NCBI GenBank assembly: GCA_041659265.1 | Contig: JBAZYP010000003.1 | Span: 101,221 to 165,220 of the forward strand | Reading direction: 5' to 3' | Source: Candidatus Pacearchaeota archaeon | GTDB lineage: Archaea > Nanobdellota > Nanobdellia > Pacearchaeales > GW2011-AR1 | Length of the DNA: 64,000 nucleotides | Shown here: piece by piece, positions 3,986 through 52,598 of the stretch | Numbering within the stretch: position 1 is the stretch's first letter | Layout: every line of letters starts with the position of its first letter | The notes under the pieces: generated by a model | Databases searched by the model: none | What the model saw: the letters and a program-made list of their open reading frames with translations, nothing else | What the model was told of the DNA's origin: nothing | Position numbers and translations under genes: made by a program

Positions 3986-4056
3986 TGGACCTAGAGAGGA
4001 TCGAACTCCCGAATTATCGGTGTAAACGATATGGTTTGCCACTAGCCTATAGGTCC
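3986..4056 (-). tRNA. tRNA-Val (anticodon UAC), 71 nt without encoded CCA
   Basis: The reverse complement GGACCTA-TA-GGCT..AACC-TATCG-TTTACAC-CGATA-ATTC-GGGAG-TTCGATC-CTCTC-TAGGTCC-A folds as a cloverleaf. The 7-bp acceptor is perfect and the canonical T-loop is TTCGATC. The anticodon loop TT-TAC-AC gives anticodon TAC. Confidence 0.8.
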
Positions 4057-19229: not shown

Positions 19230-19837
19230 TTTATTCTACCTCCACATACTTTTTTTATTCTTCTTTTCATCTTTATTTTAGTAAATGGACTCCAAAAATC
19301 ACTAGCTTTTTCAATTCTACCCATAATCCCATATCCAATTGAAGAATCATTTGCTCCAAATAAATGGCTTAATTCATGTAAAATTGATCTGTATCTTAAA
19401 TCCTCATTTGTTGCTATATTTACAACAGCAAGTTTTTCATCTTCATCGCTTGATCCTAAACAAATATTTCCAAAATGATTATTTCCATTTCTATTAATTA
19501 AAATTAATTTGTATCTATCTATTAAATCTCCAGAAAAAATTTGTTTGTAATCCATTAATATTTTTCCACACCTTGTAGCATCAACATAATCGTCCAATAA
19601 TTTTTTATCTGATTTATTTGAAGTGGATAATTTTCCTAATACAAATAACTCAGGAATTGATTGAGCATAAGGTGCTTTAATTATTCTCATATTAAAACTT
19701 GTATCAAATTCATCATTAAATTTATCATTAACTCTTCCTAATAAATTAAATAATCTAACTCTACTTTCGGAATTATCATAAATATCATGCATCTCAGGAG
19801 TCAAATATACTCCAAGTTCTAAATTAAATTTACTCAT
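19226..19837 (-). CDS. Putative zincin-like metallopeptidase (HExxHxxG; archaemetzincin-like signature without the Cys motif)
   Basis: RSILHELSHLFGANDSS. Confidence 0.4.
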   Translation of the reverse strand: MSKFNLELGVYLTPEMHDIYDNSESRVRLFNLLGRVNDKFNDEFDTSFNMRIIKAPYAQSIPELFVLGKLSTSNKSDKKLLDDYVDATRCGKILMDYKQIFSGDLIDRYKLILINRNGNNHFGNICLGSSDEDEKLAVVNIATNEDLRYRSILHELSHLFGANDSSIGYGIMGRIEKASDFWSPFTKIKMKRRIKKVCGGRIK

Positions 19838-20094
19838 TCTCTTTCCTCCAAAACTTCAATTGTTAGTTTAGTTAAAGTCCCAGGTTTTAATTGCAATTCA
19901 AGAATTTTTGGTATAACTATAATTGCTTGTTTTCCATGTTTAGCTACTCGTTTAGTTATTGTAAATTCTTTGTTTTGATTATTTGAATTTACTAGACTAG
20001 AAAAATTTTTATTGGATTTTTCTTGGATAGTAAATTCTTTGTTGTTTTTTTTAGAATTTTCAAGATTTGAAGTTTGAGAGATAGATTCTTCCAT
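19834..20094 (-). CDS. Small protein, possible AbrB/SpoVT-like swapped-hairpin DNA-binding fold
   Basis: KHGKQAIIVIPKILELQLKPGTLTKLTIEV resembles the AbrB/MazE beta-hairpin region. Weak. Confidence 0.25.
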   Translation of the reverse strand: MEESISQTSNLENSKKNNKEFTIQEKSNKNFSSLVNSNNQNKEFTITKRVAKHGKQAIIVIPKILELQLKPGTLTKLTIEVLEERE

Positions 20095-22519: not shown

Positions 22520-22753
22520 ATGGAAACAAAAATAATTAGGGTTACTGATAAAGGTCAAATATCTATTCCAGTTGAGATAAGAAATGCTATGGGAATCTTA
22601 GCTGGTGATGAACTTATTGCTGTTAGGGAAGGAGAATCAATATTTTTAAGAAAAATTAAAAAAGACGATTTTAAAGATCTACTAAAACATTCAGAAGCGG
22701 TTGCAAATAAACTTTGGAATAATAAAGAAGATGATATCTGGGATAAAGTTTAA
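22520..22753 (+). CDS. mazE: AbrB/MazE/SpoVT-family antitoxin
   Basis: IIRVTDKGQISIPVEIRNAMGILAGDELIAVREGESIFL is the swapped-hairpin signature. Confidence 0.65.
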   Translation: METKIIRVTDKGQISIPVEIRNAMGILAGDELIAVREGESIFLRKIKKDDFKDLLKHSEAVANKLWNNKEDDIWDKV

Positions 22754-23078
22754 TCAAGGAGATATTTTATTAGTACCCTTTCCATTTTCTAATTTAAAAG
22801 GTATAAAAAAAAGACCTGTATTAGTTATATCTAAAATAAATTATCAAAAACAATGTGATGATATTGTTACTTGTGGCATTACTGCTAATCTTAAAGATTC
22901 AAGATATTCAATATTAATTGATAATTCTAATTTAATTGAAGGAAACATTCCTGTGAAAAGTAGAATTAAAGTGGATAAGATATTTACCTTAGATAAGAAT
23001 ATTGTTATTAAAAAGATTGGAAGAATTAATGAAGTTACTTTTAATCTGGTTAAAACTGAATTTTTTAATCTTATATAA
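22731..23078 (+). CDS. mazF: MazF/PemK-family toxin (endoribonuclease)
   Basis: GDILLVPFPFSNLKGIKKRPVLVIS. The start is probably the ATG at 22731, which overlaps the antitoxin end; the ORF-track start at 22701 is a TTG. Confidence 0.7.
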   Translation: MISGIKFNQGDILLVPFPFSNLKGIKKRPVLVISKINYQKQCDDIVTCGITANLKDSRYSILIDNSNLIEGNIPVKSRIKVDKIFTLDKNIVIKKIGRINEVTFNLVKTEFFNLI

Positions 23079-23211: not shown

Positions 23212-25017
23212 ATGGAAAAGAAATCTCATGATAAAAAACCCGAAGAAACTTTAGATTCTAAAAATTATCAAAATTCTGAGATTAAAGGTCAACCTACTAA
23301 TCAACTTACTCCAGAACAAACAAAAGAAATGGAAAAAGTTAGGGAAAAGTTAGATGAATTGAAAAAATTGATTATTGATAAATACGGAAAATCTGTTGAA
23401 GCAATAGGTATTATTCCTCCTCAAGCTGCTGATGCATTTGATGATGAAAACGAACTTAATGAAGAAGAGCGAAAGAAAAAACCTATGCACTTAGTTGTTG
23501 TTATGGACGATGATAAAGAAAAAGAATATAATGAGATTAGGTCTCATATTGTTAAACAAATAGCAGAATCAAAACAAAATATCTGGTTAAATTTATTATT
23601 GACAAAGGACTTATGGGATTTATGCCAAGATTCAAAATATGCAATTATTGAAGCAATTGGAATGTCTTATCCCTTGCATGATAAAGGAAAATTAGCAGCC
23701 TTAAGAGTTGCTCAGATCCATAAATCTCTTGTATTAAAAAAATTCGAGAAATATGTTTATTCTTATGTTATTGGCGGAAGTCTTGTTAGAGGAGATGCAA
23801 TAAAAACTAGCGATGTAGATACTTATGTTATAATTGATGATACAGATGTAAAAAGAATGCCAAGATTAGAATTAAAGGAAAAATTAAGAAATATTATCTA
23901 TTCATATATAATGCAGGCAGGTGAACTTGCTGGAGTAAAAAATACTCTTAATGTTCAGGTTTATTTACTTACAGAATTCTGGGAAGGGGTTAAAGATGCT
24001 AATCCTATTTTCTATACTTTCTTAAGAGATGGAGTCCCATTATATGATAGAGGCGGATTCTTGCCATGGAAATTATTATTAAAAATGGGTAAGATTAAAC
24101 CATCTCCAGAATCTATTGATATGTTTATGTCAATGGGAGATAAGACTTCTGAAATTGTAAAAAGAAGATTACTTGATATTGTTATTGGTGATATTTATTG
24201 GGGAGTTATTACTCCAAGTCAGGCTATTCTTATGTTATATGGTCTTCCACCAACAACCGTTAAAGAAACAGTTCCAGAAATGAAAAGAATTTTTGTTGAT
24301 AAGGAAAAACTTTTAGAACAAAAATATGTTGATATTTTAGAAGAAATTTTAATAAAATATTACAAAGGATATGAACACCAGAAAATTAAAGAAGTTTCAG
24401 GTAAAGATGTTGATAGACTTCTTAAGAATGCTGAAGATTATTTGAAAAGATTAAAAGAATTAAGGGAAGATTTAGAAAAACAAATGCAGAAGAAAACTTT
24501 TGAAGAAATATACACAAATGTATTTAAGATAATGGGTTCTATTTACGGTGAAAAATCTGAAAGCGAATTAATAAAAACATTTGAAAAAGAAATGGTTAAT
24601 ACCGGAAAAATCCATCCAAAATTCTTGCATACAGTTAATGAACTTCTTTCAATAAAAAAAGATTACAAAAACAAAAAACTTCCAACTAAATATGCTTTTG
24701 AAACATTAAGAAAAGATTCAGTTTATCTAATTGAAAGTTTGGTTGAATATTCTCAAAGAAAAGAATTAGGTCTTTTGGAAAAAACAAAAATAACTTTGAC
24801 ATTTAAAGATAAACATGCTGAATTATTCTTAACTAAACCCTCATTCTTAGTTCATGATAATAAAGTTAAGAAGATAACTGATAAAATTGAAAATTCTGAC
24901 ATGAATGAATTCAATAAAGTTTTAACTGAACATAAAGGTTCCAAAACCAAATTAGATAATCACATGATGAATCTTCTTAGAGCAGAGTTAGGCGAATTCG
25001 ATATTGTAATGGGTTAA
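23212..25017 (+). CDS. 601-aa nucleotidyltransferase-superfamily protein (Pol-beta-like NTase domain plus long helical C-terminal region)
   Basis: YVIGGSLVRGDAIKTSDVDTYVIID matches the GS...S.DxD NTase motif. The remainder is unassigned. Confidence 0.5.
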   Translation: MEKKSHDKKPEETLDSKNYQNSEIKGQPTNQLTPEQTKEMEKVREKLDELKKLIIDKYGKSVEAIGIIPPQAADAFDDENELNEEERKKKPMHLVVVMDDDKEKEYNEIRSHIVKQIAESKQNIWLNLLLTKDLWDLCQDSKYAIIEAIGMSYPLHDKGKLAALRVAQIHKSLVLKKFEKYVYSYVIGGSLVRGDAIKTSDVDTYVIIDDTDVKRMPRLELKEKLRNIIYSYIMQAGELAGVKNTLNVQVYLLTEFWEGVKDANPIFYTFLRDGVPLYDRGGFLPWKLLLKMGKIKPSPESIDMFMSMGDKTSEIVKRRLLDIVIGDIYWGVITPSQAILMLYGLPPTTVKETVPEMKRIFVDKEKLLEQKYVDILEEILIKYYKGYEHQKIKEVSGKDVDRLLKNAEDYLKRLKELREDLEKQMQKKTFEEIYTNVFKIMGSIYGEKSESELIKTFEKEMVNTGKIHPKFLHTVNELLSIKKDYKNKKLPTKYAFETLRKDSVYLIESLVEYSQRKELGLLEKTKITLTFKDKHAELFLTKPSFLVHDNKVKKITDKIENSDMNEFNKVLTEHKGSKTKLDNHMMNLLRAELGEFDIVMG

Positions 25018-25214
25018 TTAAACTAGTCGATTTTATCGACTAAGATTTCATTTGATGAATCTTCTTAAGATGTAGAGTTAGGCGAATTCTAAATTTTAAT
25101 TAAGTTAAACCTAGTAGATTTTATCGACTAAGATTTCATTTGATGAATCTTCTTAAGAGAGAGTTAGGCGAATTCGATATTGTAATTAAGTTAATTAAAC
25201 TAGTCGAATTTTTC
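24964..25214. repeat. Three tandem copies of about 87 bp, the first of which contains the last 18 codons and the stop of the 601-aa gene. Each copy carries the hairpin TAGTCGAT-ttt-ATCGACTA (degenerate in copies 2 and 3).
   Basis: Read directly: GATGAATCTTCTTA(A)GAGNAGAGTTAGGCGAATTC ... TTAATTAAACTAGTCGATTTTATCGACTAAGATTTCATTT repeated at about 24964, 25050 and 25138. Confidence 0.7.
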
Positions 25215-25278
25215 TTTTAAAATATTCATTATTCTCATCAATCTAAATATTTATAATATATTTAATATCAGCTTTTTC

Positions 25279-28547: not shown

Positions 28548-29123
28548 ATGGCTATTGAAACATTAACAATAATTATTCTTGCAATTGCTGCTTTGTTAGG
28601 TGTATTAGTAATCATGTTCATATTCTATTATAATCGATTTACAGTTCTTGAGAATAGAATCGATAACAGTTTAGCGCAGATTGATGTACAATTAAAGAAA
28701 AGAGCAGATTTGATTCCAGCTTTGATTAAGACTGTATCAGGTTATGCAAAGCATGAGAAAAAAATAATGGAAGCAGTTACTCATGCTAGAGCATCAATGT
28801 TAAAGGGCGGAAATCTTGATAAGAGATTAAAAGCAGGCGATGAATTACAATCAGCATTAGGAAGATTATTTGCTATAGCTGAGAACTATCCTAATTTAAA
28901 AGCTAATGAAAATTTCTTGCATATGCAAACAGAATTATCTGCTATTGAAGATAAAGTAGCTTATTCAAGACAATTCTATAATGACTCAGTAATGTCATAT
29001 GAAAACGCAACTGAATTATTCCCTGGTGTATTCTTCTTTAAAATGATGGGCAAATCAAAGAAAGAATACTTGAAGATTTCAGAAGCAGATAAGAATATGC
29101 CTAAGATAGAGTTCGAAGAATAA
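28548..29123 (+). CDS. lemA: LemA-family membrane protein
   Basis: N-terminal TM, then NRFTVLENRIDNSLAQIDVQLKKRADLIPALI ... YPNLKANENFLHMQTEL ... YNDSV, which is typical of LemA. Confidence 0.75.
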   Translation: MAIETLTIIILAIAALLGVLVIMFIFYYNRFTVLENRIDNSLAQIDVQLKKRADLIPALIKTVSGYAKHEKKIMEAVTHARASMLKGGNLDKRLKAGDELQSALGRLFAIAENYPNLKANENFLHMQTELSAIEDKVAYSRQFYNDSVMSYENATELFPGVFFFKMMGKSKKEYLKISEADKNMPKIEFEE

Positions 29124-29266
29124 ATAGTTAGATTTATTTTTATTTTTTTTAGTCCTCAAATTCCCTAAGAATTTGAATGTCCAATATGCCTAAGATAGAG
29201 TTCGAAGAATAAATAGTTAGATTTATTTTTATTTTTTTTAACCCTCAAATTCCCTAAGAATTTGAT
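29097..29266. repeat. Two tandem copies of about 89 bp spanning the lemA stop codon (last 9 codons + stop + 3' flank duplicated)
   Basis: ATGCCTAAGATAGAGTTCGAAGAATAAATAGTTAGATTTATTTTTATTTTTTTTA(G/A)(T/C)CCTCAAATTCCCTAAGAATTTGA occurs at 29097 and again at 29186. Confidence 0.75.
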
Positions 29267-29314
29267 TTTATCAACTATAATAAATATTTTATAATAATTA
29301 TCTAATTTAAATAA

Positions 29315-29614
29315 TTGGAAAAAGCATTTAATAATATTCTAATTCCTAATATTATGGAAGATAAAACTTTGGAAATATTGGTCGATAGGATAAAGGGAGC
29401 AAAAATTGTACCAATATCTGCTGGTGGACAAGTTGATTGCAGATATTGTAAACATTATTCATATGAACAAGATGTTGAATTAGAATCTTGTAAATGTGAA
29501 AAAGGCTATTTTAACAGTCCATTTGGAGATATGAATCCTAATATTAATTTTGGAGCCTGTAAGGGTAAGGATTTTGAATTTAATAATTATTTCATTGTAT
29601 CTAAAAAAGAATAA
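29315..29614 (+). CDS. Small Cys-rich protein, 99 aa
   Basis: CRYCKHY ... CKCEKG ... CKGK. Confidence 0.3.
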   Translation: MEKAFNNILIPNIMEDKTLEILVDRIKGAKIVPISAGGQVDCRYCKHYSYEQDVELESCKCEKGYFNSPFGDMNPNINFGACKGKDFEFNNYFIVSKKE

Positions 29615-29619
29615 TTTTC

Positions 29620-30222
29620 CTATTTTTTTCTATATAAAATATTACCAATACTTTTCTTGTTCCTAATCTTTTGACCATTATGTAAAATTTTATTAATTTC
29701 TTCAGATATTAATTCAAGATTAGGTTTCCTTATCTTTCCATTAGTGTGCTGATAATTAGGGTCTTTAGAACATTTGAATACAAGTTCAATTTCGTCTTTT
29801 GTTATCGGTTTAACTCCTCGTTTTTCTAAAGCCATTTTACATATTACCTTTCTAGTTTCTGTATCTTGAGAATATAATCCAGCAGATCTTAAATAAATCT
29901 CTTCATTTCTTCTTGCAACATGATCTTTTTCAAGTTTTTCAAGTATAGATTCTTCAAATAATCCATCAAAAGCTTCATATAATCCTCCATAATATCCCCT
30001 TATTGCAAAACCAACTGCAGTTACAGCGACTCTATCCGATACATCAAATCTTCTTGCAATATCTAGATTTTGAGCAATTTCTTTTTGATATAACAATTGT
30101 GAATATTGGGTCTTTATTTTTTCACAATCCTGCACATTTCCAAGTATAGAACAAGCTAGTTCTAAGCCCTTTCTAATGGCTGCATATCTTCTTTGTTGAT
30201 TATCGCAACTTTTATCTAGCAT
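29620..30222 (-). CDS. Hypothetical protein, 200 aa
   Basis: ORF track. No family recognised. Confidence 0.4.
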   Translation of the reverse strand: MLDKSCDNQQRRYAAIRKGLELACSILGNVQDCEKIKTQYSQLLYQKEIAQNLDIARRFDVSDRVAVTAVGFAIRGYYGGLYEAFDGLFEESILEKLEKDHVARRNEEIYLRSAGLYSQDTETRKVICKMALEKRGVKPITKDEIELVFKCSKDPNYQHTNGKIRKPNLELISEEINKILHNGQKIRNKKSIGNILYRKK

Positions 30223-30443
30223 AGTATAATCCTTTCTAATACTTTATAGAAATCCTTTAAAAACTTATTGATTCTAATACTCTTCTCCTAATTGAACCTC
30301 ATTTTCATTTTATTAACCTTAATTAAGTCTTAAATCGTGGCGTTCTTGTTCAAAGTAATAGAACTTTGGACATAGCTCTAATCTAAAGCTTTTTATACCC
30401 TACTAATCCTATAAGAATCTCTTAAATTACTTAAAATATTATC

Positions 30444-31670
30444 ATGGAAACTTCATTAGCATTTGTTTTAGCAGGTGGAAAGGGAGATAGGCTCTCACCA
30501 CTAACAGATTTTAGGGCAAAACCAGCTGTGCCTTTTTCAAGATATAGGATAATTGACCATAATGTAAGTTCATTAATTAATGCAGGTGTAGCTAAGATTT
30601 TCCTTCTTCCACAATATCAACCACTATCTCTTGATGTTCATTCTGATAAAGCTTATCCTCATACAGATATGCGCCTTGAAAAAATAGTTAGATTAGCTTA
30701 TCCAAGGGAAATAAGAAAAGAAAGAGGAGAGACTGAATTTGCATGGTATTTAGGTACTGCTCATGCAGTTAAACAAAATATTGAATTAATAGAAAAATAT
30801 ACTCCAGATCATGTATTAGTTTTTGCTGGAGACCATGTCTGTTCAGTGAATGTAGCAGATATGCTTGATAAACATCATAAGGAAAAAAGAGATTTAACAA
30901 TAGCTGTTGAAGTAAGACAATTAAAAGAATCTGATTTTGAAATAGGAAAAGATAAGCAATTAAGATATAAATATGGAATAATTGACAGCGATAAAAATAA
31001 TAGAATTTTAGGGTTTAGGGAAAAACCATTAAGAAATGAAATGGGTAAACCTGGTGATGAAGTCCTTGTATCAATGGGAAATTATGTTTTTCATACAGAT
31101 CCATTAATGGACGCATTAAATGAAGTTAATGAAAAATTTAATGATTTTGGAAAAAATGTAATTCCAAGCATGTTAAATAAGAAAATGGATTTATTTATTT
31201 ACAGATTTAATGGTTATTGGAGAGATGTCGGAGATGTGGTTTCTTATTTTAATGCATGTATGGATTTAAATCAAATTCATCCACCATTAGACTATAAACA
31301 ATTAAGAAAAGAAAAAAGACCCATTATAACTGAAGGTGGAGAAATTCCTCCAACAAGGTTTGAAAGTCAAGGTAAAATTTCAACTGTTTCAGAAGGTAGT
31401 GAGATTTACGGAACAATTGAAAATTGTGTATTAGGTCAAAATGTCTATATTGGAAAAGGAAGTATTGTTAGAGATTCTATAATCTTTCCAGGAGTTATTA
31501 TTGAAGAAGGTGTTAATATAAGAAATGCAATAATTGATAAAAATAATACAATTCCTAGGGGTATAACTATTGGATGTTATGATCAACCGGGAGATAGATT
31601 AAAGCAATTCTATACTATTCCAAAAGATAATGATTACATAGCTGTTGTTCCTAAGGGTTTATTAAAATAA
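30444..31670 (+). CDS. glgC: NDP-sugar pyrophosphorylase, glucose-1-phosphate adenylyltransferase (GlgC)-like, with C-terminal left-handed beta-helix
   Basis: FVLAGGKGDRLSPLTDFRAKPAVPF ... YRIIDHNVSSLINAGV matches the GlgC N-terminal signature. The C-terminal hexapeptide-like repeats run GQNVYIGKGSIVRDSIIFPGVIIEEGVNIRNAII. Confidence 0.65.
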   Translation: METSLAFVLAGGKGDRLSPLTDFRAKPAVPFSRYRIIDHNVSSLINAGVAKIFLLPQYQPLSLDVHSDKAYPHTDMRLEKIVRLAYPREIRKERGETEFAWYLGTAHAVKQNIELIEKYTPDHVLVFAGDHVCSVNVADMLDKHHKEKRDLTIAVEVRQLKESDFEIGKDKQLRYKYGIIDSDKNNRILGFREKPLRNEMGKPGDEVLVSMGNYVFHTDPLMDALNEVNEKFNDFGKNVIPSMLNKKMDLFIYRFNGYWRDVGDVVSYFNACMDLNQIHPPLDYKQLRKEKRPIITEGGEIPPTRFESQGKISTVSEGSEIYGTIENCVLGQNVYIGKGSIVRDSIIFPGVIIEEGVNIRNAIIDKNNTIPRGITIGCYDQPGDRLKQFYTIPKDNDYIAVVPKGLLK

Positions 31671-33530: not shown

Positions 33531-36500
33531 TTATTCAGTAAAAATTCTTGTCTTGATAAATTGCCGCATTGCATCAGGATTTCTATATTCTGTGAATGCA
33601 GCAGGAGTGAAGGTATCTTCTACAAATGTTTCAGGGTTTCTTATGACTAAAGAAACTGTACCATCAGATTCTAATCTATAAAGTTCATGATAAATTGGTC
33701 CAGATGGGGTATTTTGTATAGTATAAAACGCAGGATTTCGTTCACTAATTGGTTTTGCAAGTTCTGCAATTACTCTGTCAGTTACATCAAATGCACCAGC
33801 ATTATCAATATTAGTATACTTCTTTACTAATGCCGGATCAAGCATACCAATATATGCTCTCTGGTGCTCAGGTAATGTAACTGAAATCATTTTGGAATAT
33901 TCCTTGCCTGAAACAGGATTTAAAACTGATTCAGACAATATTTCATCAAACATTCCATACATTTCATTTCTTCTTATAATTAAACTTGCATCTTTTGATG
34001 TACCCCATCTTCCAATTTCTCTAAGGTTACCAAAAAAGTCTCCTGTTGGAGAATCAAAAGTGCTCATTGAACCTGCAACTTTTCCATCAATCTGGATATT
34101 ATAAGTTTCAGCACGGCCAACTTTATTCAAAATCTTTTGTTTTGTATAAACTGCATAGGGTCTTAGTTTTTCATTTGCAGCATTAGCATAATCAATAAAA
34201 ACAACTTCTGCATTCTCAACAAGATCTGCTGAAGCAACAACTCGTGATTGTGATATTGGATGTATTGCAGATTGAGAAAATCTTGCAGCAGGTTCTGAGT
34301 TATAATATTTCATCAAGGCACGTCTTGCATCCGGATGTTCTCTTATGAATGCATTTGTCATTTCTTCAGGATTAAATATATCTACAATATCTGCACTATC
34401 AATATCAGATAAAATTTTTGATAATTCCTCACCTTGATAATTATTTAAGACATAATCTTTAAAATCCTCGGTAAGTGCGCTAACATCTGTCAACTTTTTT
34501 GAACCAAACTGCATTCTTCTAGCTCTATCAGTTAAAGTCTTAAGTTCTTTGAAATATACCTTTTCTAATTCACGTTCAACTCCAGTGTCATCAATTAGGT
34601 TACGTAGAGCTGTTGTTCCATCAGGATTCTTTACTCTTACTTTAATATCAGGAAAAGTTATTGTTCCACCATTTGCAGCTGGTTCGAATTTAAGATTAGA
34701 GAAATCAGCATGATTCCTTAAAATATTCTCAGCTCTTGTTGGATATTTTCTTTTTAATCCAGAATTAATCTTTACAATATCTGCTTCTTCAATAATTATT
34801 GTTCCTGATTTTCTTACTTGGAGTGATGGATTATTAAAAAAACCAGTACCTGTTGGTGTTTCTAATAAGTTCTTTAATTGATTTGTTGCTGCAAACGGAT
34901 CTTCCATGTTCCTTATAACTTTCATAGCATCATATTGTTTATAGAAAATATCTGCCTCAGCCTTTGTAAGCTTGGATAGACTTCTGTACATTTTTTCAGC
35001 ATGAGTCCTTTCAACAAGATCAATTATTTCCTCTGCAACATCAACAGCTGAACTTTCAATTTCTGCAGCTGTAGCTGTAGATTTGCCTCTAAAAATCCTC
35101 CATCTTGATGTTCCGTCAGGAGCAGGAGTTGTTTTTAAAACAAGAATAACTTCATCTGCAACCTTGCTTTCTAATACTCCAACCCTGGTAAGGATATTTG
35201 TTCCTACTCTTTTTATAATCCTCAATGTAAAAGGAAGAGCTTTAGAAAGTACAGCTCCTGTAGCAATATTAAAAAGACCTTCTCCAACATCTGTAAGGAC
35301 AGCATCAGTCATACTATCATATTCTTCAGGGTTTAATTTGTATCTTATTGCATTTACTCCACCTGTAAAATAAAATGGCAGTTCCAACATTGTTTGCATC
35401 AATGCAGCATTTCCATTATAACCATTTGCCATTTCAATATAATCAGAACCAACAGTTTCATCAGATACTGAAACAATTTGACTGTCATGAACATACCAAC
35501 CAACTATCACGAGATGATATGCACCATGACCACCTTCATAGACTTTATCTTTTTTTGCTTTAAAAGAAGTCTTAACCTTAAGATTCTCATGGATATAAAC
35601 ATCTTCTGGTGTTGTTCTTTTTCCTGCTGCAACCTGAAGGTCTTTAAAAAAACTAAAGCACATAGAGAAAATAGTCTTAGGGTCAGCTACCCCATAATCA
35701 TTTACAATAGGATAACTTATCTGTACTTTTCTTACAATTTTTAATTTCTCTAATGCTTTCATCTCTGCATCTGAGATAAGATTGTAGTTCCTGATATATT
35801 CAAATTTCTGTTCCTTGGTAATATCAGTTCTTAATGCAGTTTTCGATGAAAGATCAATCGCTTTCATTAATTTTGCCCATGCATCTTTTGGATGAATATT
35901 ATAATCCACAAATCTTCCTTGCATATTTTGTGCATTTACTTTTATTATAGGTAACCTAGAAAAATAATAATCTGCAATTTCTTGATATGTTGCACCATCA
36001 GGACCATAATTAAAACTTCTCGGTTTATCATCAAACTCTTTATAGACCGAGTAATAGTTTATCGGGCAAACCTCCGGATCAGTTATAACTTTTCCTGTAA
36101 ATCCAACATCGTATAAATAACCAGTGCCACATGAAAATTCCAGACTAGGATTTAGTTTAAGATCTGTTATGCATAAAGCTTTTTCACTATTGCAAGTCGG
36201 ACATTTGAGTGTTAACATTTTTTTTGAAAAATAACCATTAAATATCTCACGAAAGTAACCATTAGGATTATTTGATAGGGATTTTGTTGTAATAGTATTA
36301 TCAGAATTAGTTAATAATAGAGAACAAGAGCCAGCTGACTTTGTTGCTCCACGCAAGACAAAAATATTATATTCATTATAAGGTAGGAAGAAGACATCTT
36401 TTTCACTTGTAGTGGGACTAACTAAAAACTCAATATTTGTCCATGTTAGTTCAGGTGTAATATTGCATGTACCAGTTTGGCAAGAATTTATACGAGGACT

Positions 36501-39500
36501 TTTAAGGAGCTTTATTTCTGTTGACTTGCTTGTAAAAGTTGTGCATAATTGGTTTGTTTTTAGATAATCATTGATAAGAGTAAAGATTTCAGCTCCAGCA
36601 GATGTTTGAGTACCGTTAATAGCTGTATATGTTAAGCTGTTGCAATCATTATAAAAATCCAATCTTGGCTGATAACTTGAATTTGTCTCATTAGTAGTAT
36701 ATTTAATTATGACTGAAATAGAACTTGAATACAATGATAAATTATTCAATAAAGGAATTATTCTGTTGCAAAGTGTACAATCACTTGGATTGTCTGTTGT
36801 GAAGATAATATTTCCACAAGACTGTGGAACTGAATAAATATAATTAACATTAAATGTACTTGTTGTTTCTATAGAGGGCATTACTGATGTAAAATTCATG
36901 TACCTAGTTTCATTAGGTTTTAGAGTAACATTATAGTCTCCAATAATGAATGAACCCGTAGGAGGATGGATATGATATGTTAAGTTTATATCAAGATAAT
37001 TGAACAATTCAATTGACCCATTGAATAATTTACCTACTTCAAAATTTCTTGCATAAATCCATTGAACACTAGTCCCATTAGAGCCATTTTTCCACATGTT
37101 TCTGACATAACTTTCTCCTTTGTTGCAATATTGATTGCATCCACATTGAGAGTTCGAAGTGCACGAATCATTGATTATCTTGCATGAGGATCTTGTTGAT
37201 TCACTTCCATTACAACATCCGATTTTTCCAGATATTGAGCAATTATTAAAAATTGGTACTTTTAAACAAGTTCCATTGAAACTTTCTTTTGGTTCAGCTT
37301 TAAAGACAAAATTATATGTATCAGATATATCTGAACTAATACTACATTCAAGAGGATTATTATTTATATAATTATTTACACATGATTCAAATCCAACAGT
37401 ACCAGAGCAGACTTTTCTATTATCTCTATTTAATGCAACCGGATAGTTTGATAAGCCATATCTTGTTTCAAATCTTGTTTTACAATATTTCTGTATATAT
37501 CCATTATAACTAGAGGTTGCAAAGTCAAAAATATTAAAAGATCTAAAAGGTAGGGGATATATGTTCTGCATTATTTTTATGATATGATTAATTGTTTTTT
37601 GTCTTGTTAAACAAACACTTTCAGCTTTTGAATCATATAATATTTTTATGCAATTCATTCCACCAGGTACTGAGAGATCTAATTTATTTATACCTTTTTG
37701 AGGTATTGATTTTTTAATCTCAAAAACAAAACTATAATCTAAAAAATTAGTAGCATAATTAAAATTAATTATTTTATTCTGTTTAGCTAAAATTGTTCCT
37801 TTAATGGGTTCATTAATAAAATTTGAAGCTTCTACTCCAATTAAAATCTGACTAGTATCATAATAAACACTTTTTAAGATTACTTCATACTTTATTGGCA
37901 CATCAAAAGGATTTGATATGACTATAGGTTCTGTAATAAGTTTTCCAGGTTTAATGTTCAAATATACAAAATCATTACCTTTTTTTATGATTTTTTCACT
38001 ATTATAATACTTGCAATATTCACAACTTGAACAGGCTTGATTATTTTGAGAACAAGTTTTTCCAATGACTTTTGTACAAATTCCAGATGAACATTTTCCA
38101 GATTTTATTACTCCTTTTCCATTATAAGGATCTTTTTCATAAAATGTACATGACTTTCCATTTTTAGTCGAGTCAGCAATACAACCTGCATTTGGATTAT
38201 TAATATCGCATGTTTCACATTCAGAACAAACTTTAGAAATTCTATCAGCTCTTAAATATGCCCAATCAAAAATACCTGAATATGAATCTCTTAGGACAAG
38301 ATCAGGAAGAAAGGAGTATTCAACAATTATATCTCTGTTGGAAATAACTCCAAGACTATCCTGTTTATAACATTTTTTTGGGGGATTAGCGGGTGGAGAA
38401 CATTTATTTCCTGATTGAGAACAAACATAGGATGTTGTATATTGATCTGTTCTAGAATGTACAGTAACTTTATACCATCCAGAAGTATTGAAAATTTTGC
38501 ATGTATTGCTTGCAGTGCAAGGTATTTCAGTTCTTTCATAATTATATATTGGAGGGTAAGAGATATCACATCTATAGGTTTTTGTTTCAGTCTGAGTACA
38601 TTTTTTTGGTACAGGGCAGATTGGATTAGGAGTATTACAAGTACTAATATTAGAACAATAAGCCATACCCCAACATTGATGAATGCACGCCCCATTAGAG
38701 CATTGCTGACAATTATTTTTTTGTTTACATTGATCTATTATAGAACTAGTTAATGATGTTTGATTATAATAACATGATTCGCAAAGGTTTGGATTAGGAC
38801 TTTCACTTAAAGATTGACCATTAAAACAAAATGAACAGCTGCCATTAATAGCAGGCATAGTTGATGAACAATTTCCATTAGAACATGTTTGACAAGCTGT
38901 ATAATTGCATTTTGATTTGCATGCACCACCATTGCATGTCTGACATCCAGTGCAGGTTGAAGTGCAATTCTTTTTTGAAGAATCATATTGTAAACAATTA
39001 CTTTCACTGCAAGTAGAACACTGAGTGCCATTCCAAGGAAGTCCTTTCTTGCAATCAAATGAACAATTTCCAGGATCATCAACAATAGCAAAACCAGTTA
39101 TTGCATCAGCGGTTATAGTTGGTTTTTCTTTTCCAAGAAATAATCCTTTAATGAATTTATTAAAGCCTACTAACCTTTCTCCAAAAGATTTTTCATTAGG
39201 TTCTTTTTGTGTTATTATTACTTCTGGTTTAATTTCTTCATTTTCTTCTACGGGTTTTAATGAACTTAATGTACCTAAATTATCTATTTCATATTCACAT
39301 TGACATTCATCTTTTATTGAACTTACAAGAGTCCAGGTTCCACATCTTCCTCCGCATCCATCTTCACTGCATGAATATATATTATTTGAACAATGAGGGA
39401 CACAGGTTCCATCGCATACTCCATTAGTACATGTTTGACCTACTTGACAAGTTCCACATGTTCCAGAACATCCATCTGATCCACAAGTCTTTCCAGCACA

Positions 39501-40937
39501 ATTTGGAATGCAACTTCCAACACATTGTCCATTAGTGCATGTTTGACCTACTTGACAAGTTCCACATGTTCCTCCACATCCATTATCTCCACAAGTCTTT
39601 CCAGCACAATTTGGAATGCAACTTCCAACACATTGTCCATTAGTACATGTTTGACCTACTTGACAAGTTCCACATGTTCCTCCGCATTCATTATCTCCGC
39701 AAGTCTTTCCAAAACAATTAGGTAAACATGATGGCCCACAAACTCCATTATTGCAAAAATTACCAATCATACAAGTCCCACAGCTTCCTGAACATCCATC
39801 AGATCCACAATTTTTTCCAGCACAATTAGGTAGACAACTTTGATAACATAAACCTGATTTACATTCATAATTAGTTGGACATGTTCCGCATGTTCCTCCA
39901 CATCCATTATCTCCACAATATTTTCCAGAACAACTAGGAATACATGATGGATTAGAACATTGATAATTAGAATTACAAACTAATGGAGAAGTGCATGTTC
40001 CACAAAATCCAGAACAACCATCTGGACCACATTGTTTATTGGTGCACGATGGAGTGCAGGTAGTTATACAGTTGCCATTTGAACAGGTTTGACCAATTGG
40101 ACATATTCCACAAGTTAGATAAGATCCACATCCATCAGACCATGAGCCACAAGATTTTCCAAGTATAGGACATGTTGTTGGAGTGCATGGATTAATTGGA
40201 GGAAGAATTGGATTAGTGATTGGTGTTGTAGGGTTTGTTGGATATGAAGGAGGAGTTAATATTGGAAGAGTAAAAATATAATTATAATCAGAAGTTATAT
40301 CACTTGCAGATATTGCAGAATTATATACTCTAACTTCATCTATAGCACCTTTAAATGGATACCATAAACTACTTCTTCCATCACCAAAAGAAAATTTATA
40401 TGTTGAATAATAAGTTACAGTTCCAGGAGCATTTAATGTATTATCTAAAACTCCATCAATATAAATCTTCATAGATGTTCCATCATAAGTAAAGACTAGA
40501 TTATACCAAGTGTTATCAAGAAGTTTTTTTATTGAATAGACTGATTTTTGGGTTCCAGCAATATTCATTGAAAATATTATCCTTCCATCAGACATGAAAC
40601 CAAAATAAGGTAAATGCTGACCCATAAACATATTATATGTATTCAGTGAAGAATATCTTTTAACCCATAAAGAATAAGTCATCTGATTACCTTTTCCTGT
40701 AAGTAAATCTTTTGTTTCTAATCTGGATAAACCATCAAATGACAAGGCTTTTCCATTCTTGCCTTCAATAAAAGTTGTTGTACCAACAACTGTAGCAGGA
40801 TTTGTTGGATTATAAAAATCAATTATGCTATCATCAAATTTATAATGAATTATAGGACTAACAGCGCTAATATTTAAAATATTAGCTAATATTATCCCTA
40901 ATAAGATTACGAATATCCACACTCTTTTACTTGTCAT
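33531..40937 (-). CDS. Giant 2468-aa secreted/surface protein: signal peptide, LamG/concanavalin-A-like jelly-roll domain, Pro/Thr linker, about 8 tandem 36-aa Cys-rich repeats, a long Cys- and N-x-S/T-rich region, and a roughly 1100-aa Cys-poor C-terminal region
   Basis: N-terminal MTSKRVWIFVILLGIILANILNISA. LamG-like WYNLVFTYDGTSMKIYIDGVL. Repeats CxPNCAGKTCGxDGCxGTCGTCQVGQTCTNGQCVGS. Single uninterrupted ORF. Confidence 0.8.
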   Translation of the reverse strand: MTSKRVWIFVILLGIILANILNISAVSPIIHYKFDDSIIDFYNPTNPATVVGTTTFIEGKNGKALSFDGLSRLETKDLLTGKGNQMTYSLWVKRYSSLNTYNMFMGQHLPYFGFMSDGRIIFSMNIAGTQKSVYSIKKLLDNTWYNLVFTYDGTSMKIYIDGVLDNTLNAPGTVTYYSTYKFSFGDGRSSLWYPFKGAIDEVRVYNSAISASDITSDYNYIFTLPILTPPSYPTNPTTPITNPILPPINPCTPTTCPILGKSCGSWSDGCGSYLTCGICPIGQTCSNGNCITTCTPSCTNKQCGPDGCSGFCGTCTSPLVCNSNYQCSNPSCIPSCSGKYCGDNGCGGTCGTCPTNYECKSGLCYQSCLPNCAGKNCGSDGCSGSCGTCMIGNFCNNGVCGPSCLPNCFGKTCGDNECGGTCGTCQVGQTCTNGQCVGSCIPNCAGKTCGDNGCGGTCGTCQVGQTCTNGQCVGSCIPNCAGKTCGSDGCSGTCGTCQVGQTCTNGVCDGTCVPHCSNNIYSCSEDGCGGRCGTWTLVSSIKDECQCEYEIDNLGTLSSLKPVEENEEIKPEVIITQKEPNEKSFGERLVGFNKFIKGLFLGKEKPTITADAITGFAIVDDPGNCSFDCKKGLPWNGTQCSTCSESNCLQYDSSKKNCTSTCTGCQTCNGGACKSKCNYTACQTCSNGNCSSTMPAINGSCSFCFNGQSLSESPNPNLCESCYYNQTSLTSSIIDQCKQKNNCQQCSNGACIHQCWGMAYCSNISTCNTPNPICPVPKKCTQTETKTYRCDISYPPIYNYERTEIPCTASNTCKIFNTSGWYKVTVHSRTDQYTTSYVCSQSGNKCSPPANPPKKCYKQDSLGVISNRDIIVEYSFLPDLVLRDSYSGIFDWAYLRADRISKVCSECETCDINNPNAGCIADSTKNGKSCTFYEKDPYNGKGVIKSGKCSSGICTKVIGKTCSQNNQACSSCEYCKYYNSEKIIKKGNDFVYLNIKPGKLITEPIVISNPFDVPIKYEVILKSVYYDTSQILIGVEASNFINEPIKGTILAKQNKIINFNYATNFLDYSFVFEIKKSIPQKGINKLDLSVPGGMNCIKILYDSKAESVCLTRQKTINHIIKIMQNIYPLPFRSFNIFDFATSSYNGYIQKYCKTRFETRYGLSNYPVALNRDNRKVCSGTVGFESCVNNYINNNPLECSISSDISDTYNFVFKAEPKESFNGTCLKVPIFNNCSISGKIGCCNGSESTRSSCKIINDSCTSNSQCGCNQYCNKGESYVRNMWKNGSNGTSVQWIYARNFEVGKLFNGSIELFNYLDINLTYHIHPPTGSFIIGDYNVTLKPNETRYMNFTSVMPSIETTSTFNVNYIYSVPQSCGNIIFTTDNPSDCTLCNRIIPLLNNLSLYSSSISVIIKYTTNETNSSYQPRLDFYNDCNSLTYTAINGTQTSAGAEIFTLINDYLKTNQLCTTFTSKSTEIKLLKSPRINSCQTGTCNITPELTWTNIEFLVSPTTSEKDVFFLPYNEYNIFVLRGATKSAGSCSLLLTNSDNTITTKSLSNNPNGYFREIFNGYFSKKMLTLKCPTCNSEKALCITDLKLNPSLEFSCGTGYLYDVGFTGKVITDPEVCPINYYSVYKEFDDKPRSFNYGPDGATYQEIADYYFSRLPIIKVNAQNMQGRFVDYNIHPKDAWAKLMKAIDLSSKTALRTDITKEQKFEYIRNYNLISDAEMKALEKLKIVRKVQISYPIVNDYGVADPKTIFSMCFSFFKDLQVAAGKRTTPEDVYIHENLKVKTSFKAKKDKVYEGGHGAYHLVIVGWYVHDSQIVSVSDETVGSDYIEMANGYNGNAALMQTMLELPFYFTGGVNAIRYKLNPEEYDSMTDAVLTDVGEGLFNIATGAVLSKALPFTLRIIKRVGTNILTRVGVLESKVADEVILVLKTTPAPDGTSRWRIFRGKSTATAAEIESSAVDVAEEIIDLVERTHAEKMYRSLSKLTKAEADIFYKQYDAMKVIRNMEDPFAATNQLKNLLETPTGTGFFNNPSLQVRKSGTIIIEEADIVKINSGLKRKYPTRAENILRNHADFSNLKFEPAANGGTITFPDIKVRVKNPDGTTALRNLIDDTGVERELEKVYFKELKTLTDRARRMQFGSKKLTDVSALTEDFKDYVLNNYQGEELSKILSDIDSADIVDIFNPEEMTNAFIREHPDARRALMKYYNSEPAARFSQSAIHPISQSRVVASADLVENAEVVFIDYANAANEKLRPYAVYTKQKILNKVGRAETYNIQIDGKVAGSMSTFDSPTGDFFGNLREIGRWGTSKDASLIIRRNEMYGMFDEILSESVLNPVSGKEYSKMISVTLPEHQRAYIGMLDPALVKKYTNIDNAGAFDVTDRVIAELAKPISERNPAFYTIQNTPSGPIYHELYRLESDGTVSLVIRNPETFVEDTFTPAAFTEYRNPDAMRQFIKTRIFTE
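39422..39745. repeat. Three near-identical 108-bp tandem DNA repeats inside the giant gene, each encoding one 36-aa Cys-rich module
   Basis: Read directly: CATTAGT(R)CATGTTTGACCTACTTGACAAGTTCCACATGTTCC ... CACAAGTCTTTCCAGCACAATTTGGAATGCAACTTCCAACACATTGTC repeated at 39422, 39530 and 39638. Confidence 0.8.
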
Positions 40938-44739: not shown

Positions 44740-45021
44740 TTAATTATATTTTTTATTGATCTGCTCTATTCTCTTTTTAATTATATAATAAGTTATTAAG
44801 AATATTATAAGAAAAATTGAAAAAACAAAAATCATTGATAGGGATTGATTATCAAACATATTTTTTAAATAGGGATTTGTTTCAGCAAAATCTACTAATA
44901 TTACTCCAACAAAACCAACAGGAATGCACGAACCAACAAAAACTAATGGTCCTACAATAAATATTGTCAATAAAATTAATATCATTCTTGTTACAGGCCT
45001 CTTAATTTTTTCTTCATCCAT
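44740..45021 (-). CDS. Small two-TM protein, paralog 1 of a six-member tandem family (lipobox-like VGSC motif, C-terminal KKYN)
   Basis: MDEEKIKRPVTRMILILLTIFIVGPLVFVGSCIPVG ... KKYN. Confidence 0.5.
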   Translation of the reverse strand: MDEEKIKRPVTRMILILLTIFIVGPLVFVGSCIPVGFVGVILVDFAETNPYLKNMFDNQSLSMIFVFSIFLIIFLITYYIIKKRIEQINKKYN

Positions 45022-45490
45022 ATTTTTCTTTGATAAATTTAATTGTTTTTATTACAACAAAAAATGCTAAAATAGTCCCTATTACTAATCCTGCTAGAAG
45101 ATATACCTCTGCTTTTGTGCTATAAATGTTCTGAGTAGTTACACCATAAAATCCAATAGGAAAACATGATCCAACAAAAACTAATGGTCCCAATATAAAA
45201 ATAGTTATTAAAATTCTTATTTTAATTTCAATTCCACTTTTTGTTTCTCTATTTTTGCTATTAGCATAAATATTATCAAAATGGAAATATAATCCACTTA
45301 ATACAAGAATAATCGATATAATAAAAATTAGAATCTGAATTAATTTTAAAATAAAATAAAAATCACGGAATTGACTAGTTCTAATAAACTCAATAATTAA
45401 AAATAAAATTAAATTTATAAATAAAATTAAAAAAAAATAATTTAATAATTTGCCTTTTTGTCCTTGATTATTAATATTTTTTTCATCCAT
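45014..45490 (-). CDS. Paralog 2, with an extra N-terminal TM region and an internal GPLVFVGSCFP motif
   Basis: ILGPLVFVGSCFPIGFYG ... IKEKYG. Confidence 0.45.
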   Translation of the reverse strand: MDEKNINNQGQKGKLLNYFFLILFINLILFLIIEFIRTSQFRDFYFILKLIQILIFIISIILVLSGLYFHFDNIYANSKNRETKSGIEIKIRILITIFILGPLVFVGSCFPIGFYGVTTQNIYSTKAEVYLLAGLVIGTILAFFVVIKTIKFIKEKYG

Positions 45491-45923
45491 TTTTTAAATC
45501 TTTAATAAATTTATATATAAAAAATAATGCTAGAAAACAAAATAGGAAAAATGACAGATATCCAGTTATCTCTTCTCTTGATTCTTTTGGAAATATTGAA
45601 GAATAGGTAAAAAAAGGAATTAATACTAATAACATATATCCTATAAAAAAATAAATAATATAATTATTAAAGAACTTTTTAATTATATATTTGGATTTTG
45701 TTGGATCCTGTTTATAGAATTTTAATATTTTTAAAATCAAAAATGCAGATATTAAGCCACAAAATAATGAAAGAAAAGGTAAAATTAAATCATAATTATT
45801 AAAATACGTGCTAGAGATTCCTAGGGGTAAGCAAGAACCTAAAAATATTAAAGGACCAATTAAAAATAAAATTAAGATAACAAATAAAACTTTTGATATT
45901 TTAGATTTTTTTCCTTCATCCAT
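45483..45923 (-). CDS. Paralog 3, with a C-terminal extension
   Basis: MDEGKKSKISKVLFVILILFLIGPLIFLGSCLPLG. Confidence 0.45.
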   Translation of the reverse strand: MDEGKKSKISKVLFVILILFLIGPLIFLGSCLPLGISSTYFNNYDLILPFLSLFCGLISAFLILKILKFYKQDPTKSKYIIKKFFNNYIIYFFIGYMLLVLIPFFTYSSIFPKESREEITGYLSFFLFCFLALFFIYKFIKDLKNG

Positions 45924-46164
45924 ATTTTTTATTAATTAACTTAATCAAATAAAAAACAACTAATATTCCTAAACCTAATCCAACTATCCATGACCCATAA
46001 AAGATTATCATTCCAAAGAATTCAGAACTTCCGCCTTCAGATAAAGTAAAACCAAATAAACCTAAAGGAAAACATGCCCCAACAAAAACTAATGGTCCTA
46101 CAATAAATATTGTCATTAATATTAAAATTATCTTCAATCCCGAACTTTTTTTATTCTTAACCAT
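45916..46164 (-). CDS. Paralog 4
   Basis: MVKNKKSSGLKIILILMTIFIVGPLVFVGACFPLG ... INKKYG. Confidence 0.5.
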   Translation of the reverse strand: MVKNKKSSGLKIILILMTIFIVGPLVFVGACFPLGLFGFTLSEGGSSEFFGMIIFYGSWIVGLGLGILVVFYLIKLINKKYG

Positions 46165-49150: not shown

Positions 49151-50131
49151 ATGTCAGATCACAAAGTTAGTATATTAGCAAATCCTGAAGGAAATGCATG
49201 GGAATATGCAGAAGAGATTTTTAATTACTTAAATAAAAAAGATGATTGCTATGAATTAAATAGGGTGATAATTGAGTCTTTTAGAAATGGAGAAATTAAG
49301 CCCAAGATTGAAGATAATATTAGGGATAGAAAATGTTTCTTTATTCACGATTCAACACTTGATCCTAACAAATGGTTAGCTCAATTATCTCTAATTAACG
49401 AGACAATGCATAATTCTTCATCTTATAATATCACAGATATATTACCTATGTATTTATTTGCAAGACAAGATAGGAAAGATGATTCAAGGGTTCCAAAAAG
49501 TGCAAAAGTTGTTGCAGATATTGCACAAAAATATGGAAATAGATTAATGACATTAGATATTCACTGTCCACAGATAGAACTGGCATTTGATACACCTTTT
49601 GAAAACTTGCCTTCTTATCCAGTGGTATCTTCTTATTTAAAAAAGAATCACCCAAAAATACTCGATGATCTTGTAATTATGAGTCCAGATGAAGGCGGTG
49701 TGAAAAGAGCAGTTGCATTTGGAAAATATTTGCAAAATAATGAACTTGTTGTTGCATATAAAATTAAAGATAAAAATGGAAAAATTATAGATTTAAGGAT
49801 TTTAGGGGATGTTAAAGATAGAAAAGTAATGATGATTGATGATATCGTAGATTCAGGTAATACTTTAATTACAGCTGCAAGAAGAGCAAGAGATCTAGGA
49901 GCAAGTGAAGTTTATGCCTATGCAACTCACGGGTTATTTACTGAAGGTTCAGATAAAGTTACAAGAGAATTTGATAAATTTTTTGTAGGAGACACATTTA
50001 AACAAAAACAAGGAATTAACGCAGAAATTATCAAATTACCCTTATTCATTGGTGAGGCTATATACAGAAATATTACTGGTTTAAGTTTAAGCGAGATGTT
50101 CAGATACGATTTTGTTTTTGATGCAGTTTAA
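49151..50131 (+). CDS. prs: Ribose-phosphate pyrophosphokinase (PRPP synthetase)
   Basis: PRPP-binding loop KVMMIDDIVDSGNTLITAA. Overall Prs length and layout. Confidence 0.8.
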   Translation: MSDHKVSILANPEGNAWEYAEEIFNYLNKKDDCYELNRVIIESFRNGEIKPKIEDNIRDRKCFFIHDSTLDPNKWLAQLSLINETMHNSSSYNITDILPMYLFARQDRKDDSRVPKSAKVVADIAQKYGNRLMTLDIHCPQIELAFDTPFENLPSYPVVSSYLKKNHPKILDDLVIMSPDEGGVKRAVAFGKYLQNNELVVAYKIKDKNGKIIDLRILGDVKDRKVMMIDDIVDSGNTLITAARRARDLGASEVYAYATHGLFTEGSDKVTREFDKFFVGDTFKQKQGINAEIIKLPLFIGEAIYRNITGLSLSEMFRYDFVFDAV

Positions 50132-50217
50132 TCAATGCAGAATTGATAGATTCTGCAGGTCTGTTACTGGTTTAAGTTTAAGCGAGATGTTCAGATACGA
50201 TTTTGTTTTTGATGCAG
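50074..50217. repeat. Two identical 53-bp copies (last 19 codons of prs) separated by a 38-bp spacer containing an 8-bp inverted repeat; period 91 bp
   Basis: TACTGGTTTAAGTTTAAGCGAGATGTTCAGATACGATTTTGTTTTTGATGCAG at 50074 and 50165. The spacer holds TGCAGAAT-tgatag-ATTCTGCA. Confidence 0.75.
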
Positions 50218-50259
50218 ATTAAGAATAAATCAAAAAGGACATTATTTCAAAAATCAATT

Positions 50260-52062: not shown

Positions 52063-52446
52063 ATGTTACAAAAAAACTACACTGCTTCTGAAACGCATTA
52101 TTTATGCGATGAATGTAGTGAGGCAATTACTAATCCATTATGTCCTTATTGTCTTACTGAAGAAGTTGAAGCTTGGTTAACTCTTTATCCTAATCTAAAG
52201 CATGAGATAAAGCCGCATATAGATAGGTATCTTCACCGTGGATTCATGAATTTCTCGACAATATGTATCAAATGTAGAAATCCTTCTGCATTCCTGTGTC
52301 CATATTGTTTCACAAATCATGTATTAATATCATTAAAGAAAATTAATGCAAGTAAGTTAATATTAAAAGAATTCTTTGATTTCTTTAATTTTGATTTTGA
52401 TCATACCGGTTATACTCATGAAGCAGAGAGGTTAGGAGTAATTTGA
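52063..52446 (+). CDS. Cys-rich zinc-finger protein, 127 aa
   Basis: CDECSE ... CPYCLTEE ... CIKCRN ... CPYCFTNH. Confidence 0.4.
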   Translation: MLQKNYTASETHYLCDECSEAITNPLCPYCLTEEVEAWLTLYPNLKHEIKPHIDRYLHRGFMNFSTICIKCRNPSAFLCPYCFTNHVLISLKKINASKLILKEFFDFFNFDFDHTGYTHEAERLGVI

Positions 52447-52598
52447 TGACAATCAGTTTAAAGTTAAATCCACTAACTCAAATATCTTCGATATTTGATC
52501 TAGTTAAGAGGTTAGGAGTAATATGATAATGTTAAATAAAATTTCAAATTCATCTTCTCAAAAATCAAAAAGATTTTTGATATGTAAGGAGGGAAATC

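Follow-up and report, generated by a model that had tools for sequence, protein, structure and literature searches.

The locus described here lies in a 64 kb stretch of DNA from Candidatus Pacearchaeota (the window; 27% G+C and 91% coding, whose positions are used throughout for features within it), in which the 3' end of the lemA gene and the DNA just behind it occur twice in direct succession. The gene itself is intact and encodes a 191-residue protein that matches the Pfam LemA family with E=1.2e-52 over profile positions 2-149 of 149, the alignment reaching the final profile position, and that is 100% identical to P0001, the annotated LemA of 'Candidatus Pacearchaeota' from a 224-kb contig. 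The locus is composed as follows.

28548..29123, + strand: the lemA gene, 191 aa
29094..29176, + strand: copy 1 of the duplicated block, 83 nt, with the lemA end, a T-rich tract, an AGTCC linker and a hairpin
29133..29150, + strand: the 18-nt T-rich tract of copy 1, TTTATTTTTATTTTTTTT, which includes a T8 run and is a candidate archaeal oligo-T terminator
29156..29176, + strand: hairpin TCAAATTC-CCTAA-GAATTTGA, a perfect 8-bp stem whose 3' foot is the end of copy 1
29177..29182, + strand: spacer ATGTCC, the 6 non-duplicated nt at the junction
29183..29265, + strand: copy 2 of the duplicated block, 83 nt, with the second T-rich tract, the second hairpin and an orphan frame
29186..29212, + strand: orphan frame encoding MPKIEFEE in copy 2, ATG to TAA, 8 codons plus stop
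29222..29239, + strand: second T-rich tract, inside copy 2
29245..29265, + strand: second hairpin, again a perfect 8-bp stem, whose 3' foot is the end of copy 2

The duplication was recovered by a repeat finder (29094-29176 / 29183-29265, 83 nt, 98% identical, spacing 89, same strand), by Tandem Repeats Finder (TRF; 29094-29265, period 89, 1.9 copies, 97% matches, score 330) and by a diagonal scan, in which the lemA pair scores 77 versus a maximum of 15 for shuffled sequence, a result that excludes a chance origin of the repeat. These searches bear out an earlier sequence-only reading of this DNA, which had proposed a tandem duplication spanning the lemA 3' end and its T-rich flank and including the last nine codons plus the stop: the repeat begins at codon 183, and the coding part of copy 1 consists of codons 183-191 (NMPKIEFEE) and TAA (30 nt), followed by 9 nt, the 18-nt T-rich tract, AGTCC (5 nt) and the 8-bp hairpin. 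That reading had described two 80-bp copies with a period of 89; the period is right, but the copies are 83 nt long and the 6-nt spacer separates them, so that the structure is not a clean head-to-tail tandem of 2.0 copies. The stand-alone MPKIEFEE frame that it placed in the second copy is present at 29186-29212. Absent from it were the 6-nt spacer, the hairpin that ends each copy and the membership of the lemA duplication in a set of four such events (see below), and it is the spacer, the hairpins and this recurrence that point to a mechanism.

As had also been noted, only two substitutions separate the copies: the adjacent bases GT at 29152-29153 are AC at 29241-29242, just 5' of the hairpin and in non-coding DNA, and the 30 coding nucleotides are identical. 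The spacer ATGTCC has no homology to GATAAG (before copy 1) or to TTTTAT (after copy 2), and its GTCC echoes the GTCC immediately 5' of the copy-1 hairpin. This hairpin is bordered on both sides by GTCC (AGTCC...ATGTCC; 29152-29155 and 29179-29182), and the copy-2 hairpin on both sides by TTTTA (TTTTAACCC...TTTTAT; 29236-29240 and 29266-29270). All differences between 'copy 1 plus spacer' and 'copy 2 plus downstream' thus hug the hairpin, which hints that they stem from one complex event and not from later point mutations. Beyond copy 2 the DNA continues with TTTTATCAAC... into the promoter region of the next gene (29315..29614).

Could the structure be an assembly or amplification artefact of a metagenome-assembled genome (MAG)? 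The source is indeed a MAG, the contigs retrieved all trace back to a single run and a single ENA assembly, and such repeats are unusually numerous in this assembly. However, a MEGAHIT k141 contig of the ENA assembly (L003) corresponds to window positions 28962-31550 with 0 mismatches and covers the entire structure, the k of 141 exceeding the repeat length. Over about 7 kb, other contigs of the ENA assembly depart from the window at 3 positions, so that this assembly is a consensus in its own right and no duplicate of the MAG. Among the Logan k=31 contigs of run SRR18595301, L001 ends at 29123 and L002 starts at 29211; the last unique 31-mer ahead of the repeat is 29093-29123, and the first 31-mer with a copy-2-specific base starts at 29211. 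The Logan contig breaks thus fall where the repeat and its single-nucleotide polymorphism (SNP) predict, as a de Bruijn graph would give if the reads contain both copies and the difference between them. Moreover, the GT/AC difference tells the copies apart, and the graded divergence of the older arrays described below is unlike the product of an artefact. Exact-protein look-ups found the one Logan run and the one ENA assembly, with the duplication in both. An artefact is accordingly extremely unlikely, and we regard the lemA duplication as real.

Three further gene ends in the window are duplicated in a similar fashion.

24965..25230, + strand: 3' end of a nucleotidyltransferase-like (NTase) gene (23212..25017) plus hairpin, three full copies
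50073..50222, + strand: end of a PRPP-synthase gene (49151..50131), arranged A-B-A' with period 91 and 1 mismatch
52427..52586, + strand: end of the open reading frame (ORF) 52063..52446 plus hairpin, two 80-nt units about 70% identical

The NTase array, which is also present in ENA contig L170 and is presumably the duplication numbered 1 in the earlier reading, has units of 88-89 nt that are about 87-90% identical, a hairpin TAGTCGAT-TTT-ATCGACTA of which extra copy b carries one mismatch and extra copy c is decayed, and TCA..TGATG microhomology at the junction. At the PRPP-synthase gene the repeated segment comprises the last 59 nt and finishes precisely with the stop, and a 32-nt spacer lies between its two copies (59 + 32 + 59); this spacer B carries a hairpin, TGCAGAAT-TGATAG-ATTCTGCA, and is unlike the sequence before A or after A'. 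The duplication at ORF 52063..52446 is the weakest case, its exact-match core scoring 18 versus a shuffle maximum of 15, and the stems of its two hairpins, 9 bp each and both still perfect, differ by a compensatory T:A to A:T exchange. The four duplicated genes share the + strand, with periods of 89 (lemA), 88/89 (NTase), 91 (PRPP) and 80 nt (ORF 52063..52446) and with divergences of about 2% (lemA), 2% (PRPP), 10-13% (NTase) and 30% (ORF 52063..52446). Such graded divergence at near-constant length argues for a continuing mutational process and not for a single accident.

Local direct repeats were scanned for systematically: all strong short tandem duplications in the window other than coding repeats span a stop codon, and the remaining short tandem duplications are in-frame coding repeats. 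With 91% of the genome coding, a 90-nt duplication placed almost anywhere else would disrupt a gene, and survivors are therefore expected to be stop-spanning or in-frame. An example of the latter is an old 69-nt (23-codon) in-frame tandem duplication at 19958-20071 in ORF 19834..20094 (- strand), in which an NKEFTI motif is repeated; the corresponding candidate pair 19958/20027 was rejected as a gene-end event for being this in-frame coding duplication. A perfect 8-bp hairpin (19999-20023) lies between its copies. No additional gene-end event was found in the 6.8 kb upstream of the window.

Two of the duplicated genes have toxin-like neighbours: a PemK/MazF-like toxin gene lies just upstream of the NTase-like gene (by the annotation of L170; toxin-antitoxin region 22520-23078), and a PemK-like toxin (Pfam 1e-10; region 50260-50592) is convergent with the PRPP-synthase gene, its stop lying 38 nt from copy A'.

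The four events share a relation to hairpins. In all of them the next copy starts 6, 10, 6 or 8 nt (6 at lemA) past the 3' foot of a hairpin whose stem is perfect and at least 8 bp long, a rule that only 1.6% of the positions up to 100 nt downstream of stops obey (P about 6e-8 for four events and 4e-6 for three). The duplication process is therefore tied to hairpins. Perfect hairpins of this kind (stem of at least 8 bp, no more than 90 nt downstream of a stop) follow 12 of the 72 window genes, the four duplicated genes among them, and this proportion of 17% compares with 5-7% of genes in about 1.6 Mb of related DPANN loci, an excess of about 2.5-fold even over the low-GC relatives. The four event hairpins have no common sequence. 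A motif considered as shared among the events, CYTAAGAKAGAGTT, was discarded: it matched the lemA copies and one NTase unit only, and 1 of 100 shuffles did likewise. Several gene-end hairpins in the window (29156, 41948, 52478 and 52558) have the form TCAAA...TTTGA.

Genome and metagenome scans returned no conspecific sequence, the best LemA matches having 75% and 72% amino-acid identity. At the partly syntenic locus of a sister species (L004, 79% LemA identity) the LemA C-terminus, ending in EMPKIEFEE before the stop, is kept, and the DNA downstream of lemA is unalignable and lacks the hairpin, the T-tract and the repeat. Four short duplications spanning a gene end were found in about 1.8 Mb of related DPANN loci (~2 per Mb), versus three or four in the 64 kb analysed here (~50 per Mb), so that such events are about 20-fold rarer in the relatives. 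Those of the relatives, in the coordinates of their own loci, are the following.

L090, 634-738: 35-nt x3 array at the end of a lemA orthologue, spanning the stop, with a 7-bp hairpin 9 nt ahead of the junction
L010, 12912-13071: 45-70-45 A-B-A' arrangement at the end of an HtpX/M48-peptidase gene, the repeated block stopping exactly at the stop codon
L040, 2044-2325: clean 140 x 2 tandem at the end of an HtpX/M48-peptidase gene, with 2-nt junction homology
L110, 2540-2740 (- strand view): 44-nt direct repeat with spacing 82 that includes a tRNA gene 3' end

Gene-end duplication thus recurs independently in the related DPANN group and is much denser in this genome. The tRNA-end repeat of L110 has the look of an att site left behind by an integrative element. 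One gene family (M48 peptidase, with HPPLEKRIA.LERM at the C-terminus) accounts for two of the four duplications in the relatives, and a non-coding stretch of a Parvarchaeota locus (L056, 3802-3995) contains perfect direct repeats of 37-88 nt with spacings of 77, 106 and 183.

Our preferred explanation, in which we have moderate confidence, is that the lemA duplication is a fairly recent (about 2% diverged) local duplication that arose from a replication or repair error beside a small hairpin and that persists because it is harmless. In the event that we infer, a replication-associated template switch or mis-processing of a flap at the hairpin, a nascent or displaced DNA end would detach from its template at the foot of the 8-bp hairpin while the region downstream of lemA is being copied, would gain a few extra bases (ATGTCC), and would re-pair about 89 nt upstream inside lemA, so that the stretch is copied again. 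Simple slipped-strand mispairing, which converts ABA to ABABA, resembles the events in the window in giving head-to-tail local copies without element genes, and the NTase array and L040 fit it. It does not suit lemA, however, because the 1.93 copies there are separated by an untemplated 6-nt spacer and no flanking repeat or homology is present, nor does it suit the PRPP event because of the A-B-A' structure.

The same scar could have been left by repair of a double-strand break near the hairpin, for instance after cruciform or structure-specific cleavage, if synthesis-dependent or microhomology-mediated end joining recopied about 83 nt and left the 6 nt as filler. End joining typically leaves a filler without microhomology, the hairpin foot coincides with the junction, and the PRPP event and L010 have complex A-B-A' products. 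But an 8-bp AT-rich stem is short for cruciform extrusion, and the recurrent size of 80-91 nt is left without a reason, and we regard break repair as unlikely, if not negligibly so. Sequence alone does not separate it from the replication model, and it may be taken as a sub-variant of a 'replication/repair error'.

Several points weigh against a replication error at a hairpin as the origin of the lemA duplication. The lemA junction has no microhomology and its 6-nt spacer has no clear template, and end-joining repair would leave an identical scar. The repeated block of the PRPP A-B-A' structure, like that of L010, ends exactly at the stop codon, which a pure replication-error model does not predict. 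Both the 6-10 nt rule and the size of ~89 nt were noticed post hoc, all assemblies possibly derive from one sampling site, and there is no unduplicated allele from which polarity or recency could be read. The comparison with flap and Okazaki-fragment processing is an analogy drawn from data on yeast and human. Finally, the perfect, compensated hairpins of the old duplication at ORF 52063..52446 suggest that these hairpins are functional, so that some selection on extra copies would be possible.

The closest known mutational signature is that of cells lacking the flap endonuclease Rad27/FEN1, in which duplications that reach about 100 bp, with a unique block of 1-91 bp, accompany the creation or extension of palindromes. 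Both are attributed to a stalled nascent strand that folds back where a hairpin stabilises a flap (PMC5677150, PMC13493898). 'Alternative duplications', in which two units flank a short non-duplicated internal spacer, are also seen after FEN1 loss (PMC12633238, PMC13142317). The lemA (83 + 6 + 83) and PRPP (59 + 32 + 59) events have this same unit-spacer-unit structure; the lemA unit is shorter than about 100 bp (83/89 nt), all four periods of the window likewise fall in this size range, a hairpin-forming sequence sits at the lemA junction (ending 6 nt before copy 2), and this genome, too, is enriched in perfect short palindromes. On the other hand, classical rad27 events are bordered by short direct repeats, unlike the lemA event, and the FEN1-loss signature is known from eukaryotic mutants under stress and not from a wild archaeal lineage. 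Tandem repeats of the Borg elements of Methanoperedens provide an archaeal precedent, as roughly half of their repeat regions lie between genes or begin with a unit inside a gene end and structure-triggered replication slippage has been discussed for them (PMC9879509). The archaeal setting and the gene-end or intergenic placement are thus shared (PMC9879509), whereas Borg repeats consist of many short and perfect A-rich copies bordered by partial ones, and those described here have 2-3 copies of 80-91 nt, are of mixed ages and lie on an ordinary chromosome.

A broader and more speculative proposal, which we put forward tentatively and consider rather less probable than not, is that a duplication process anchored at hairpins is unusually active in this Pacearchaeote lineage and works with a ruler of about 80-91 nt. 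It would parallel, in nature, the FEN1-loss or 3'-flap 'alternative duplication' signature, would perhaps result from a reduced flap-processing toolkit in a streamlined DPANN genome, and would both create perfect short palindromes and duplicate the adjacent ~90 nt. The ruler of ~80-91 nt would then correspond to roughly one archaeal Okazaki fragment or to the about 90 bp of histone-wrapped DNA, and selection would leave the products visible only across stop codons, as gene-end duplications of graded age.

A footprint of a mobile or retro-element would be a different kind of origin, be it attL/attR remnants, a target-site duplication around a miniature hairpin element, a pair of repeats from a diversity-generating retroelement (DGR) or a reverse-transcribed mRNA 3' end. 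Integrative elements do duplicate gene 3' ends, as the tRNA-end repeat of L110 probably exemplifies, and the PRPP and L010 blocks have their boundary precisely at the stop codon, which is common for att identity blocks; DPANN archaea, moreover, are known to carry DGRs. However, Pfam searches of 47 window ORFs, a set that did not include all small ORFs, turned up neither a reverse transcriptase nor an integrase or transposase, and the inventory is that of ordinary chromosomal genes. Like an att-site duplication, the lemA repeat contains a gene 3' end, but the 6 nt between its copies leave no room for an integrated element, and this, with the lack of an integrase among the scanned ORFs, led us to reject an attL/attR-flanked element. 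A miniature inverted-repeat transposable element (MITE) or an insertion sequence (IS) with target-site duplication was rejected for want of dispersed copies: in the window the duplicated lemA unit, its flanked hairpin and its junction are confined to this locus, and the spacer with the PRPP hairpin likewise to its own, and the hairpins of the four events differ in sequence. Nor do the copies form a template repeat/variable repeat (TR/VR) pair of a DGR, as no reverse transcriptase domain was found in the 47 ORFs and the GT/AC difference is non-coding and not adenine-specific. RNA-mediated copying of the mRNA 3' end was discarded on the same lack of a reverse transcriptase among these ORFs and on the boundary of the unit, which is the hairpin foot (the stop codon for PRPP) and not the oligo-T tract where an archaeal transcript would end. 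A mobile or retro-element origin of the lemA duplication is therefore very unlikely, and for lemA it can be called already largely refuted.

What might the second copy do? Archaeal RNA polymerase terminates at oligo-T, and the sense strand here has such a run (5 or more T) soon behind the lemA stop, TTTATTTTTATTTTTTTT at a distance of 9 nt, and again at 29222-29239. A scan for intrinsic terminators of the bacterial type, a G+C-rich hairpin with a U-run directly behind it, gave 0 sites at the locus; the lemA hairpin contains at most 2 G-C pairs and follows the T-tract instead of preceding it. Folded as RNA, this hairpin has -6.5 kcal/mol and the whole unit -14.6 kcal/mol (z = -2.5), with the T-tract pairing with the A-rich last codons and the stop. 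No Rfam family matched at the lemA locus, the sole match in the window being a tRNA-Val (3986-4056).

The duplicated block carries its own stop and T-tract, so that copy 1 should still give full-length LemA and a normal transcript end, and copy 2, placed between a terminator and the next promoter region, would be effectively neutral DNA in which the 8-codon frame, the redundant T-tract and the redundant hairpin would decay. No sign of expression of the orphan MPKIEFEE frame was found: it has no gene-like context and lies behind the 18-nt T-rich tract. Copy 2 is thus most likely a decaying relic, and a back-up terminator in it, as its T-rich sequence could provide, is possibly a by-product that is not needed to explain the structure.

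An opposing interpretation would see in the hairpin and the oligo-T a 3'-untranslated-region (3'-UTR) or terminator module, acting as a transcript-end or RNA-stability element, with the tandem pair advantageous and hence selected. The enrichment of gene-end hairpins noted above speaks for it, as do the hairpins at ORF 52063..52446, kept perfect by compensatory change despite the ~70% identity of their units, and the second 18-nt T-rich tract in copy 2. Yet such a module would have no use for the 30 coding nucleotides that the block includes, and the first T-tract is long as it stands, its 18 nt containing a T8 run. In the sister species lemA is followed by neither a hairpin nor a T-tract nor a repeat. 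Neither a scored terminator-like site nor a matching RNA family lends support, and the decay of the extra NTase hairpins argues against selection for extra copies. We therefore hold a selected module to be quite unlikely and return to the neutrality that we infer for copy 2: the lemA duplication is probably an ordinary neutral scar that leaves LemA unchanged.

The value of the lemA duplication lies in its being one data point in a natural series, four gene-end duplications of similar length and different age in 64 kb of a hairpin-rich genome, and the cluster in the window may be a natural readout of flap or template-switch mutagenesis. Should the pattern hold genome-wide, it would provide a readable mutational signature of replication and flap processing in an uncultivated DPANN archaeon, where genetics is impossible, and would show selection in a 91%-coding genome confining structural mutations to stop-spanning positions. 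For annotators, orphan mini-ORFs and 'second terminators' behind genes in such genomes are likely to be duplication relics.

Repeats of other kinds are also found in the window. ORF 33531-40937 (- strand, 2468 aa) contains 108-nt (36-codon) tandem coding repeats at 39390-39938, in 4-5 copies of 71-91% identity, whose unit is visibly rich in cysteine codons (ACA/GCA on the + strand, i.e. TGT/TGC on the coding strand). Four paralogous segments of about 80 nt, 77-81% identical, lie at 44901-46587 (- strand) within a run of small - strand genes, and their sequences suggest a tandem family of small proteins.

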